Shown here: positions 21,423-34,829 of the stretch, one piece after another | How positions within the stretch are numbered: position 1 is the first letter of the stretch | Layout of the letters: each line of letters starts with the position of its first letter | The notes under the pieces: generated by a model | What the model saw: only the letters and a program-made list of their open reading frames with translations | Told to the model about the DNA's origin: nothing | Databases searched by the model: none | Position numbers and translations under genes: made by a program | NCBI GenBank assembly: GCA_964016885.1 | Contig: OZ024742.1 | Span: forward strand, 133,920,001-133,984,000 | Length of the DNA stretch: 64,000 nucleotides | Source of the DNA: Eledone cirrhosa | Lineage: Eukaryota | Direction of reading: 5' to 3'

Positions 21423-21477
21423 TATAAAATATTAAACAAATAATGAATAAACAATTCCTTATATTAAACAAAAAAAG

Positions 21478-21632
21478 TTCATTATTTAACGATCGTTTCT
21501 AGGATATATATGTGTTAGAATTGGTATGCATATTCAACAGATCTATGTACAAAATTATACAAAATTATACAAATTATCAAGATTAAATATACATACCAAA
21601 CACATATATACGCCGTCTTCAGAAATAATGAA
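21478..21632 (-). ncRNA. Type I hammerhead ribozyme with long stem II (3' pLTR copy)
   Basis: Reverse complement of 34446-34600. Confidence 0.7.
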
Positions 21633-22299
21633 GTATATTTATTGATAATAACAACAATTCAAAATGTCAGGTCCGTTTGGGAACGAAATTGACCAATGAA
21701 AACACAAAGGGTTAAATGCAGTTCGGTGTGTGTATATACATGTAAAACCCTTACACATATTTTACAAAAATGTATGTATAATTTGTATACGCATACTAAA
21801 AGGATGGATGCAAATACAAAATTTCAAGGTTAATGTCTCTGTAGGTTTATAATGCGCAGATAAGATGCGTATTGACACTTATGAAGTTAAGTATATAAAT
21901 ATATTTTTTCATACTCACACATATCCGTATAATCACACATAAACGCGCGTATATGCATAAATATACACATAACCACGAACATACAAACACACACACACCC
22001 CCACTCACATTTATATATGTGGATATAAAATCATAAGCACATGGATATTAATTCACTCACATAAAACATTGGCACACACACTTTTAGATCAAGATACAGA
22101 AATTAGGTGGGAGGGGGGGGGTCAGTATTCAACTGTCTGAGCAAACTGCCTAATATAAATGTATCCATAAACTAAGAAAAATAAAAAAATAAAAAAATAA
22201 AAAAATAAAATATAATAAATAAAACATTAAAGAGGAAAGAGTAGAAAGAAAAACAGAAAAAAGAAAAAAGAAAAAAGAAAAAAGAAATATATCAAGAAA

Positions 22300-22325
22300 A
22301 TAAATATATATATATACACATATAT

Positions 22326-22370
<45 letters not shown>

Positions 22371-22566
22371 TATATATATATATATAAAAACATACATATA
22401 TATACACATAGACACACACACATCCATACATAAATATACACACATATATAAACACATACATACATATACACACATCCACACTAAGAACATACATACACAC
22501 ACATATATAAACATATACATATACACACATACATACATATACGCATATACATACAAATACACATAC

Positions 22567-22601
<35 letters not shown>

Positions 22602-22933
22602 CATATATATACATACATATGTGTACATACACGTACATATACACACACATATACATATAATCACACATACTATATAGACACAGATATATATAACCACACA
22701 CATACATACACATATACAACACTTACATACTAATATACATACAGATATACACATACATAGCTATATATACACACAAATATATACAGACTTACATATATAC
22801 ATACAGACAAATACTTACGCATCTATATATCGGTATATACATACAAACACCACTACACTATCACACAACTTAGAAATACAAAGAGAAAGGTATATACCTA
22901 TACACACATACATATACAAATAGAAAAACATAT

Positions 22934-22972
<39 letters not shown>

Positions 22973-23585
22973 TATACATATACATATATATATATAACAT
23001 ATATATATACATATATATATATATACATATACATACAAATACACATACACACACATACAGATATATACACATACATACATGTACACACACATAGAAATAT
23101 TTACGCATACACACATACACACATACATATAAAGTCATACACACACATACACCTACACGAACATACACATACACATATATAAAGATATATATACACACAC
23201 ACACACACACGCAACACATACACACATACACATACATACACACATACATAGACATACATGTACATACATATACGTACATCGATATACATATATATATATA
23301 TATACACACATAGACATATACATACATACACACACAACTTACATACACACATATATATACATGTATATTCATACATAGAATTAGATATATAATCATACAT
23401 ACATATGCACTTACTTATACTCATATATACAAATACATACGCATCCATATATGCGTATATACATAAAAAACCACTACAACATCACCTAACTCAGACATAC
23501 AAATAAAAATAAAAATAAAAAGGCATATGTATATACATACACACACACATTAATAGAGATATATATATACACACATACATATACA

Positions 23586-23625
<40 letters not shown>

Positions 23626-24013
23626 CACACATACACTCATACATATATATATATATATACACATAGATACCCACACACTCATACCACCATAAATACACAT
23701 ACAAACACCCACATATACATATATATACACACGTATATATATATATATATATATACACACACATAAAAAACAGACATGCACATATATATATATATTTTTT
23801 TACACTTATATATACACATATTATATACACATACACAACCTCGCTTATACACACATACACATAAGTTATATTATAATAATAAAAAATAATATATATGTAT
23901 ATATATACATATATATATATATACATACATACACATATATACATATATACATATAAACATATACATACATATATACACACATACGAATATAGACATATAT
24001 TCACACATAGACA

Positions 24014-24073
<60 letters not shown>

Positions 24074-24560
24074 TACATATACACAGACACATATACACAC
24101 TCACATATATATATGTGTGTGTGCACACACACATATATACACACATACACATATATACACATAAACACATATATGTGCATACATGTACATACACACACAT
24201 ATATCACATAGATACGAAGATAGACATATAAATAGAGAGACATACATATATATACACAACACACATACACACACATACATACACACGCATATACATATAC
24301 ATATATATATACATATATATATATATATTCCTATATATACATATATAGACATACATACACATATATACACATACATACACATATACGTACACACATTCAC
24401 ATACACATACATATATACATGCATATATACACATATATACATACATACACACACTCATATATACACACACAATCTTACATTCATATTTGCATGCACATAT
24501 ATGTATTTTTATATTTAGATATAAATACCCAAACCTATATAGACACCTACCTACATATAT
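22300..24560. repeat. Degenerate (CA/TA)n low-complexity tract within the PLE 3' UTR
   Basis: Mirrored almost base for base at about 31400-33770. Confidence 0.9.
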
Positions 24561-31941: not shown

Positions 31942-32327
31942 TGTCTATGTGTGAATATATGTCTATATTCGTATGTGTGTATATATGTATGTATATGTTT
32001 ATATGTATATATGTATATATGTGTATGTATGTATATATATATATATGTATATATATACATATATATTATTTTTTATTATTATAATATAACTTATGTGTAT
32101 GTGTGTATAAGCGAGGTTGTGTATGTGTATATAATATGTGTATATATAAGTGTAAAAAAATATATATATATGTGCATGTCTGTTTTTTATGTGTGTGTAT
32201 ATATATATATATATATATACGTGTGTATATATATGTATATGTGGGTGTTTGTATGTGTATTTATGGTGGTATGAGTGTGTGGGTATCTATGTGTATATAT
32301 ATATATATATGTATGAGTGTATGTGTG

Positions 32328-32367
<40 letters not shown>

Positions 32368-32740
32368 TGTATATGTATGTGTGTATATATATATCTCTAT
32401 TAATGTGTGTGTGTATGTATATACATATGCCTTTTTATTATTATTTTTATTTGTATGTCTGAGTTAGGTGAGGTTGTAGTGGTTTTTTATGTATATACGC
32501 ATATATGGATGCGTATGTATTTGTATATATGAGTATAAGTAAGTGCATATGTATGTATGATTATATATCTAATTCTATGTATGAATATACATGTATATAT
32601 ATGTGTGTATGTAAGTTGTGTGTGTATGTATGTATATGTCTATGTGTGTATATATATATATATATGTATATCGATGTACGTATATGTATGTACATGTATG
32701 TCTATGTATGTGTGTATGTATGTGTATGTATATTTAGGTG

Positions 32741-32793
<53 letters not shown>

Positions 32794-33097
32794 ATATATA
32801 TATGTATATATCTTTATTATTTATTTTTTTATATATATGTGTATGTGTGTATGTGTTGCGTGTGTGTGTGTGTGTGTATATATATCTTTATATATGTGTA
32901 TGTGTATGTTCGTGTAGGTGTATGTGTGTGTATGACTTTATATGTATGTGTGTATGTGTGTATGCGTAAATATTTCTATGTGTGTGTACATGTATGTATG
33001 TGTATATATCTGTATGTGTGTGTATGTGTATTTGTATGTATATGTATATATATATATATGTATATATATATGTTATATATATATATGTATATGTATA

Positions 33098-33132
<35 letters not shown>

Positions 33133-33466
33133 CTATATGTTTTTCTATTTGTATATGTATGTGTGTATAGGTATATACCTTTCTCTTTGTATTTCTAAGT
33201 TGTGTGATAGTGTAGTGGTGTTTGTATGTATATACCGATATATAGATGCGTAAATATTTGTCTGTATGTATATATGTAAGTCTGTATATATTTGTGTGTA
33301 TATATAGCTATGTATGTGTATATCTGTATGTATATTAGTATGTAAGTGTTGTATATGTGTATGTATGTGTGTGGTTATATATATCTGTGTCTATATAGTA
33401 TGTGTGATTATATGTATATGTGTGTGTATATGTACGTGTATGTACACATATGTATGTATATATATG

Positions 33467-33501
<35 letters not shown>

Positions 33502-33697
33502 GTATGTGTATTTGTATGTATATGCGTATATGTATGTATGTGTGTATATGTATATGTTTATATATGTGTGTGTATGTATGTTCTTAGTGTGGATGTGTGT
33601 ATATGTATGTATGTGTTTATATATGTGTGTATATTTATGTATGGATGTGTGTGTGTCTATGTGTATATATATGTATGTTTTTATATATATATATATA

Positions 33698-33744
<47 letters not shown>

Positions 33745-34445
33745 ATATATGTGTATATATATATATTTATTTTCTTGATATATTTCTTTTTTCTTTTTTC
33801 TTTTTTCTTTTTTCTGTTTTTCTTTCTACTCTTTCCTCTTTAATGTTTTATTTATTATATTTTATTTTTTTATTTTTTTATTTTTTTATTTTTCTTAGTT
33901 TATGGATACATTTATATTAGGCAGTTTGCTCAGACCGTTGAATACTGACCCCTCCCCCCCCCCCCTCCCACCTAATTTCTGTATCTTGATCTAAAAGTGT
34001 GTGTGCCAATGTTTTATGTGAGTGAATTAATATCCATGTGCTTATGATTTTATATCCACATATATAAATGTGAGTGGGGGTGTGTGTGTGTTTGTATGTT
34101 CGTGGTTATGTGTATATTTATGCATATACGCGCGTTTATGTGTGATTATACGGATATGTGTGAGTATGAAAAAATATATTTATATACTTAACTTCATAAG
34201 TGTCAATACGCATCTTATCTGCGCATTATAAACCTACAGAGACATTAACCTTGAAATTTTGTATTTGCATCCATCCTTTTAGTATGCGTATACAAATTAT
34301 ACATACATTTTTGTAAAATATGTGTAAGGGTTTTACATGTATATACACACACCGAACTGCATTTAACCCTTTGTGTTTTCATTGGTCAATTTCGTTCCCA
34401 AACGGACCTGAAATTTTGAATTGTTGTTATTATCAATAAATATAC

Positions 34446-34600
34446 TTCATTATTTCTGAAGACGGCGTATATATGTGTTTGGTATGTATATTTAATCTTG
34501 ATAATTTGTATAATTTTGTATAATTTTGTACATAGATCTGTTGAATATGCATACCAATTCTAACACATATATATCCTAGAAACGATCGTTAAATAATGAA
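34446..34600 (+). ncRNA. Type I hammerhead ribozyme with 116-nt stem II (inverted-arm pLTR)
   Basis: Stem I ttcattattt/aaataatgaa (10 bp perfect). CTGAAGA at 34456-62. Stem II helices tatatatgtgtt/aacacatatata and tggtatgtatatt/aatatgcatacca. GAAA at 34579-82. Palindromic stem III AACGATCGTT. GUU site after 34590. Confidence 0.72.
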
Positions 34601-34785
34601 CTTTTTTTGTTTAATATAAGGAATTGTTTATTCATTATTTGTTTAATATTTTATCTTGACTCTGTATACCGTTTATCTTTCACCGAAAGTGGTTTTTCAT
34701 TACATCTCTTCTTTCCATGATATCCGAAATACATTGAGTTCTTCATACGGATTGGACACTACCGTAAACTCTTGGTAGATTTATC

Positions 34786-34829
<44 letters not shown>

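Follow-up and report, generated by a model that had tools for sequence, protein, structure and literature searches.

The insertion treated here lies in a 64,000-nucleotide (nt) stretch of the Eledone cirrhosa genome, which in its whole length is called the window below, and consists of two arms of a 7-kb Penelope-like element (PLE) joined head to head. The described systems with which it is best compared are the Hydra clade of C-terminal endonuclease-bearing (EN+) PLEs, the Poseidon PLE of Anolis, the retrozymes and L1.

The Hydra-clade elements of Craig et al. 2021 (PMC8557442) encode a reverse transcriptase (RT) and a GIY-YIG-type domain in one open reading frame (ORF), the motif set comprising RWK, DKT, a CxCx5C linker, CxxC and CxH. 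They carry a hammerhead, use a (TA)n target and occur as partial tandems with an inverted 5'-truncated copy and a tail at one end. The element of the window is alike in this organization and in its motif set. It differs in that the unit measures 6.0-7.2 kb, against generally <3 kb in the Hydra clade, in that the tail is 135 nt long instead of 30-40 nt, and in that multi-kb inverted arms are common and young copies number in the thousands.

In the Poseidon PLE of Anolis (PAc; Frangieh et al. 2024, PMC11167929), as here, the tail is set by two internal RT start sites downstream of the hammerhead. In vitro, both strands of an AT-rich target are cleaved and extended, uncut RNA is used, and a dimer is predicted. 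The start sites showed no strand difference in vitro, whereas within the insertions described here each strand has its own site. A multi-copy mRNA was proposed for PAc, whereas the long arms here lack a stop at the presumed cap.

A circular RNA has been proposed for PLEs, whose minimal hammerheads need dimers (PMC4209133). The present element shares with that proposal and with the non-LTR retrozymes (LTR, long terminal repeat) a type I hammerhead with a short palindromic stem III, which would act as a dimer, and longer-than-unit head-to-tail copies; circles have been shown for 170-400-nt retrozymes and are a proposal only for autonomous PLEs (PMC4209133, PMC7229834). Unlike a retrozyme, the unit here is 7 kb long and codes for an enzyme, and the support for a circle comes from insertion ends, not from RNA. 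In L1 twin priming the position of the second priming is variable and there is no overlap between the two parts, whereas here the two priming sites are constant, with 135 nt between them, and both arms are copies of one sequence. The likeness to L1 lies in the inverted junction of two complementary DNAs (cDNAs), with small indels, and in an extra G that is read as a copied cap (PMC4859970).

That PLEs have two internal starts producing a tail, nick and extend both strands and leave an inverted 5' copy has been published before (PMC11167929, PMC8557442), as has the circle, in the form of a proposal (PMC4209133). New here are the family-wide pairing of ends, a putatively capped 5' stop, and the absence of this stop from long arms. 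The literature search, outside which older Penelope work largely fell, turned up no paper that deals with paired ends or with cap-G stops in PLEs. The origin of the tandems, inverted copies and tails, the RNA strand that is copied and the role of the hammerhead are left open in PMC8557442, PMC3846280 and PMC11167929.

Paired ends of the insertions

Insertions of this family have two fixed 3' ends, one on each flank, and arise with high probability by twin priming on one sense RNA. Element positions are given on a scale ("ref") that runs in element sense along the left arm, ref i being window position 28936-i, or 34194+i within the right terminal pseudo-LTR (pLTR). On this scale the presumed transcription start is at 255, the predicted hammerhead cut between 396 and 397, end 1 at 460, end 2 at 595 and the ORF start at 750; the unit is 7052 nt long. 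Coordinates of the locus are collected in Table 1.

The head-to-head anatomy that had been reported in the first-pass annotation is real, with arms of 7512 and 5843 nt and (TA)n on both flanks. The left arm is one unit plus 460 nt, end 2 lies 135 nt beyond end 1, the two ends are 64 and 199 nt downstream of the predicted hammerhead cut, and the central junction holds an 11-nt repeated piece, all as described there. Over the shared 5.6 kb the arms differ by 8 substitutions and 7 indels, and they enclose a single-copy part of 1.9 kb; a fold-back read chimera would not produce such a structure. One indel of 117 nt is a loss in the left arm, because the segment is present at two related loci.

It is scarcely credible that the locus is an assembly artefact of the fold-back type or a pair of independent side-by-side insertions. 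The central junction was not found as a joint in the 4 sequencing runs examined, and one difference between the arms (22134/33936, among the 8 substitutions) is polymorphic, both states occurring elsewhere in the family. Against this stand the number of arm differences, the different ends, and the closeness of the arms, which differ at 1 of ~1490 sites from each other and at ≥16 from ten other insertions. In addition, 577 raw reads of another sample show end 2 joined to (TA)n, and a contig of another organism contains a palindromic junction at the start site 28681.

Family termini were searched for with exact 24-mers in the 3.0-Gb genome. This gave 2244 end-1 termini, 2284 end-1 read-throughs and 4496 end-2 termini, while 434 end-2 matches followed by TAA were mostly read-throughs (42 of 60 opened were internal). 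On C1 between 0 and 97 Mb, 33 of 45 end-1 termini have an inverted end 2 as the nearest inward opposite-strand terminus (≤25 kb), the expectation for random placement being a mean of 0.56 with a maximum of 5 in 2000 trials. Seen from the other side, among the first 88 end-2 termini the partner is an inverted end 1 in 40 cases and an end 2 in none; the remaining 48 comprise 33 with long arms or too little flanking sequence and 15 short arms for which no partner was found. The 3' ends are fixed, and the earlier suggestion that each target strand primes at its own site is supported genome-wide. Ten long insertions picked from end pairs are all head to head and 8-29 kb long, two of them (I3, I9) with an extra rearrangement. 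The layout with paired ends is the norm of the family, so that the multi-kb arms of the window, singled out at first as striking, belong to a real and young insertion that is ordinary for its family.

Of the apparent pairs of like ends, the two end-1/end-1 cases and the one end-2/end-2 case that were opened proved to be neighbouring separate insertions. At G000:C2:32.30-32.31 Mb two family copies (L019, L020) share one orientation and are separated by 3.3 kb; a piece of 3' untranslated region (UTR) and a short end-2 fragment stand before each of them, and the arrangement looks like a later local duplication.

A probable single template for both arms

The pairing of end 1 with end 2 argues for two primers on one RNA. 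Arms were compared over ref 2110-3600, ~1490 sites, in the seven insertions in which both arms were covered. Within an insertion they differ at 0-1 sites in six of the seven, the exception being I7 with 12, against 0-82 sites, mostly ≥15, between insertions. Among 58 arms that begin at the start site, the partner is short in 49, absent in 7 and long in 2, and both "long" partners consist of one short word each and are apparently spurious. Arm identity and the pairing of short with short fit two primers on one RNA.

Self-priming (fold-back) on antisense RNA would also make head-to-head palindromes. It was proposed for rotifer PLEs from palindromes at inverted junctions (PMC3846280), and many junctions of the present family are short palindromes. 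It is nevertheless very unlikely here, as both outer ends are fixed sense 3' sites joined to the target, the extra G of the 5' stop described below is on the sense strand, and the arms are often very unequal and enclose single-copy parts. Twin priming of the L1 type, primed at poly(A) and giving non-overlapping parts, was ruled out, as there is no poly(A) end and the arms overlap by 5.6 kb.

The 5' stop

A third fixed point is found 142 nt upstream of the hammerhead cut, at an A (window 28681 and 34449) in the context TTCA+1TT, which is initiator-like by consensus. Genome-wide, ref 255 is the first position of 979 copies that carry a non-template letter in front of it, and 3452 copies read through. 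A further 443 copies have C before ref 255, most of the 100 listed beginning at 252-254; both start-site patterns were restricted to copies with A or T 15 bases upstream. By hand count, G precedes the start-site A in 45 of 100 listed copies, and G stands at -2 in 4. The partner arm does not explain 27 of the 45, and a scripted count gave G before the start site in 15 of 44 arms.

The initiator-like A is likely the transcription start, and the extra G is likely a copied RNA cap, as the untemplated G at full-length L1 and SVA 5' ends has been interpreted (PMC4859970); an initiator-like motif has also been noted in a rotifer PLE pLTR (PMC3846280). The extra G argues for a capped sense template, and since copies from the start site span the hammerhead site, this template was likely capped, sense and uncut. 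Such short capped RNA, a template class beyond the circle or tandem RNA considered at first, likely accounts for many short insertions.

At two junctions of start-site arms (L076:1850-1885 and L111:1515-1545) the last ~13 bases, including the extra G, are repeated 2-3 times; these tandem terminal re-copies resemble repeat addition.

Copies beginning at the predicted ribozyme cut number 69 genome-wide, against ~8790 that span it, a figure from a read-through-matching search that serves as denominator only. About 12 of the 69 are joined through stem-I microhomology, and the rough background is 0.12% per base per arm. The excess is at most two- to threefold, and the peak of arm ends at the cut was set aside as evidence for cut linear templates. 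At the ~12 junctions with stem-I microhomology (among them L262, L264, L272, L274 and L285) a start-site end is joined to the ribozyme-cut region of the other arm over a 10-nt stem I match.

Long arms and arrays

The 5' stop is absent from the sampled arms longer than a unit. Read-through sites were sampled at 100 of the 434 places, on C1 and part of C2 (74 newly retrieved, 24 already in the set and 2 downstream members of retrieved arms); apparent stops at ref 139 are a subfamily indel and were scored as read-through. None of the 39 independent, systematically sampled arms that pass an internal start site ends there, and 12 internal sites end before it. On the first pass, 20 of 55 end-2 arms reaching ref 255 stop there (two with a TA flank were scored by eye), and the difference is significant (Fisher p 4e-6). 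Because the first-pass rate partly reflects short transcripts from terminal pLTRs, the telling number is 0/39, which sets an upper bound of 7% on the stop rate in long arms. Eleven further arms also pass the site, among them the left arm of the window, which ends 254 nt upstream of the presumed cap site of its internal pLTR. Long-arm ends are scattered from ref 222 backwards over the preceding unit.

On a capped RNA of one unit, every long arm would stop. The internal copies that reach the ribozyme site cross it without an indel in 60 of 60 cases (some places counted twice), and a search for a G scar at -1 gave C-to-G in 1 of 13 variant read-through copies. Long copies are thus seamless at the ribozyme site and free of a cap stop, as would be expected of a circular template.

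The missing cap stop argues against plain read-through RNA. Uncleaved RNA read from tandem genomic donors, regenerated by unequal crossing-over as in the scenario of PMC11167929, should show cap stops because every pLTR carries the start site: in a model with up to five units and uniform use of starts and priming sites, at least a third of first internal passes end at the cap, and the probability of 0/39 is 1e-7. [quoted passage not shown] Nevertheless, the longest run among the 100 listed read-through sites is 3 in a row, and each subfamily would need a long donor of its own. Tandem donors are therefore an improbable source of the long arms. The first-pass annotation had left the choice between a circle and an uncleaved tandem RNA; of these the putative circle is favoured, and the tandem RNA is disfavoured by the 39 arms.

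The main rival to the circle is a template jump, leaving no seam, on a linear capped RNA that is terminally redundant. The RT would run to the cap and jump by homology to the downstream pLTR, a step likened to LTR first-strand transfer; in a variant it would jump end to end across a ribozyme-cut linear monomer. Short copies would be made from transcripts without a second pLTR to jump to. This explains the short capped copies, the identical arms and the read-through of the start site without a ligase, it would work in PLEs without hammerheads (PMC8557442), and the re-copied cDNA ends at junctions indicate that the 3' end realigns easily. The jump would have to fail in less than ~7% of cases (0/39), with the downstream pLTR already paired with cDNA, and would have to leave no G scar at -1 and no indel at the ribozyme site in 60 of 60 copies. 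In array A2 one site separates both terminal pLTRs from all three internal ones; a template with two pLTRs could produce this pattern, and later unequal crossing-over explains it too. A ligated circle predicts both the missing cap stop and the seamless ribozyme site, and a near-perfect jump does so too; the jump is considered unlikely, if less so than the tandem donors, and we lean slightly towards the view that longer-than-unit arms were copied from ribozyme-cut, ligated circular RNA.

Within insertions, 28 of 38 variable sites are private and unseen elsewhere. Unit differences are star-like in I10 and A1 and ambiguous in A5, while in A2, A3 and A4, three of the six multi-unit arrays, derived variants are common to adjacent units. 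Rolling passes made independently over a single RNA do not yield such sharing, which is in keeping with unequal crossing-over at a later time, a tandem donor or mixing in the assembly, and multi-unit arrays were accordingly rejected as proof of rolling-circle copying. In the 4.5-unit array L144-L147 (G000:C1:183.73-183.76 Mb), a variant common to the three internal pLTRs is missing from the two terminal ones, and the last unit is ~930 nt shorter.

The hammerhead motif

A manual fold of the right arm gives a minimal type I hammerhead with a palindromic stem III and a long stem II. Its stem I pairs 34446-34455 with 34591-34600, and the core consists of CTGAAGA (34456-34462) and GAAA (34579-34582). 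No hammerhead family is present among the 150 of 204 Rfam rows shown, which are microsatellite-driven microRNA and other chance matches, and the ribozyme is thus assigned from the manual fold. Folding of the region between the start site and end 2 is better than that of 100 of 100 shuffles (z -3.8). Transcription beginning at the presumed site would leave stem I (34446-34455) with 7 of its 10 pairs, in the 5' copy alone, and could weaken the cutting of that copy.

Identity of the element

The 813-amino-acid (aa) ORF contains the motifs YRDD, DKT, RWR, CxCx5C, YIG, CxxC and CxH. The Hydra-clade set appears in it as SDKTGN, CNCRNKANC, CRLC and CNH, with RWR in place of the RWK that most homologues have. 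Scoring of 7999 candidates gave 118 homologues, and YRDD and YIG are conserved in the 11 that were aligned. Two cysteines precede YIG but are not conserved in the alignment, so that there is no conserved CCHH. A Pfam search with the ORF found no family at E≤0.001; weak library matches are GIY-YIG in 2 of 12 members at E 0.012 and retron RT at E 0.01.

The organization is that of an EN+ PLE: a single ORF with RT plus a GIY-YIG endonuclease at the C-terminus, for which library support is weak; pLTRs formed by partial tandems; an inverted 5'-truncated copy; a tail at one end; and a hammerhead motif, predicted by hand, in the pLTR. The motif set, the lack of a conserved CCHH and the (TA)n target are those of the Hydra clade. 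Judged by its sequence, the element is a PLE with the Hydra-clade motif set, the clade being assigned by motifs. A non-LTR retrozyme, a non-coding tandem repeat of 150-450 nt, was ruled out by the 7-kb unit with its unbroken ORF. The length of the unit is due to the microsatellite-rich 3' UTR.

The pLTR region shares words with sequencing runs of 16 other organisms (X5-X20), and in X5 pieces of both ORF and pLTR occur with few differences.

Features of the window

A miniature second insertion of the same family has the layout of the giant one, with an inverted end-2 arm of ~60 nt and an end-1 arm of 27 nt. Just to its left, at 62606-62703, is a near-perfect hairpin with arms of ~45 bp, possibly a small element resembling a miniature inverted-repeat transposable element. 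[quoted passage not shown]

Table 1. Features of the PLE insertions and their flanks, in window positions
Feature	Position	Strand	Remark
Left (TA)n target flank	21314-21423	.	(TA)n tract itself extends to 21426
Left arm, 7512 nt (7052-nt unit + 460 nt)	21424-28935	-	End 1 at 21424 abuts target
Left-arm terminal pLTR, stops at end 1, without tail	21424-21883	-	99.6% to 28476-28935
Hammerhead motif (predicted), left terminal pLTR	21478-21632	-	Identity with 34446-34600
3' UTR rich in microsatellites	22300-24600	-	
Unbroken 813-aa ORF, RT and C-terminal GIY-YIG-type endonuclease	25745-28186	-	
Left-arm internal pLTR	28341-28935	-	Includes tail 28341-28475
Hammerhead motif (predicted), internal copy	28530-28684	-	Predicted cut between 28540 and 28539
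Initiator-like A (TTCA+1TT), putative transcription start	28681	-	Fixed 5' stop of short family copies
11-nt re-copy at central junction	28936-28946	+	Repeats 28920-28930; 3-nt (ATG) match before
Right arm, 5843 nt, 5'-truncated within RT region	28947-34789	+	End 2 at 34789 abuts target
Hammerhead motif (predicted), right terminal pLTR	34446-34600	+	Predicted cut between 34590 and 34591; presumed start 34449
Tail, 135 nt, from end 1 to end 2	34655-34789	+	
Right (TA)n target flank	34790-34831	.	(TA)n tract 34789-34831
Miniature second insertion, same family, in (TA)n	62737-62819 (83 nt)	.	

Proposed mechanism

The following sequence of events would account for the insertions. Transcription would start at the initiator-like A. 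Transcripts from terminal pLTRs, of which there are thousands of donors, would contain one hammerhead and remain uncut and capped, whereas whole-unit transcripts would contain two hammerheads, dimerize through the palindromic stem III, be cut twice and be ligated. The enzyme, probably a dimer, would nick both (TA)n strands and prime at the two ends, 1 and 2, through TA pairing over 2-3 nt. On the uncut capped RNAs the RT would run off at the cap, copying it as G, and give miniature insertions. The circle would offer both priming sites and no cap, so that the RT would pass the start site and end at random. End joining typically leaves short re-copies like the 11-nt piece, and the two cDNA 3' ends would be joined in this way, by microhomology or with short re-copies, some arms expanding later by unequal crossing-over.

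Taken as a whole, the scheme says that an autonomous 7-kb PLE sorts its transcripts by a dimer-dependent hammerhead: those with one ribozyme would stay capped and give miniature copies, and those with two would become circles that an RT dimer copies from two fixed sites, one per target strand. Belief and doubt about it are evenly balanced.

Several points tell against these conclusions, beside the missing central junction of the locus and the variants shared by adjacent units of A2-A4. The usual hammerhead cut follows GUC or GUA, and the cut predicted here follows GUU. The partner arm could have templated 18 of the 45 extra G's. Of the 53 short end-2 arms, 15 are without any partner found, and end-2 termini outnumber end-1 termini about 2:1, an excess that is largely an effect of the pattern, the exact end-1 pattern being matched by 12 of 40 partners. 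Identical arms are also expected with a single expressed donor per cell, and the two states of 22134/33936 make two templates possible at the locus. In the data given in PMC11167929, hammerhead mutants of the Poseidon PLE inserted normally in vitro and no RNA reads began or ended at the cut. Naiad PLEs form partial tandems without canonical hammerheads (PMC8557442), so that a ribozyme-independent route exists. For the start site, the cap, the ribozyme activity and the circle alike, the inference is drawn from DNA copies.

The family provides thousands of young copies with three exact coordinates, the start and the two priming sites, in addition to the ribozyme site. With these and an unbroken ORF at hand, the question of the template can now be tested directly on RNA. 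If the proposed mechanism is true, the insertion ends would amount to fossil traces of a circular intermediate in a protein-coding retrotransposon.

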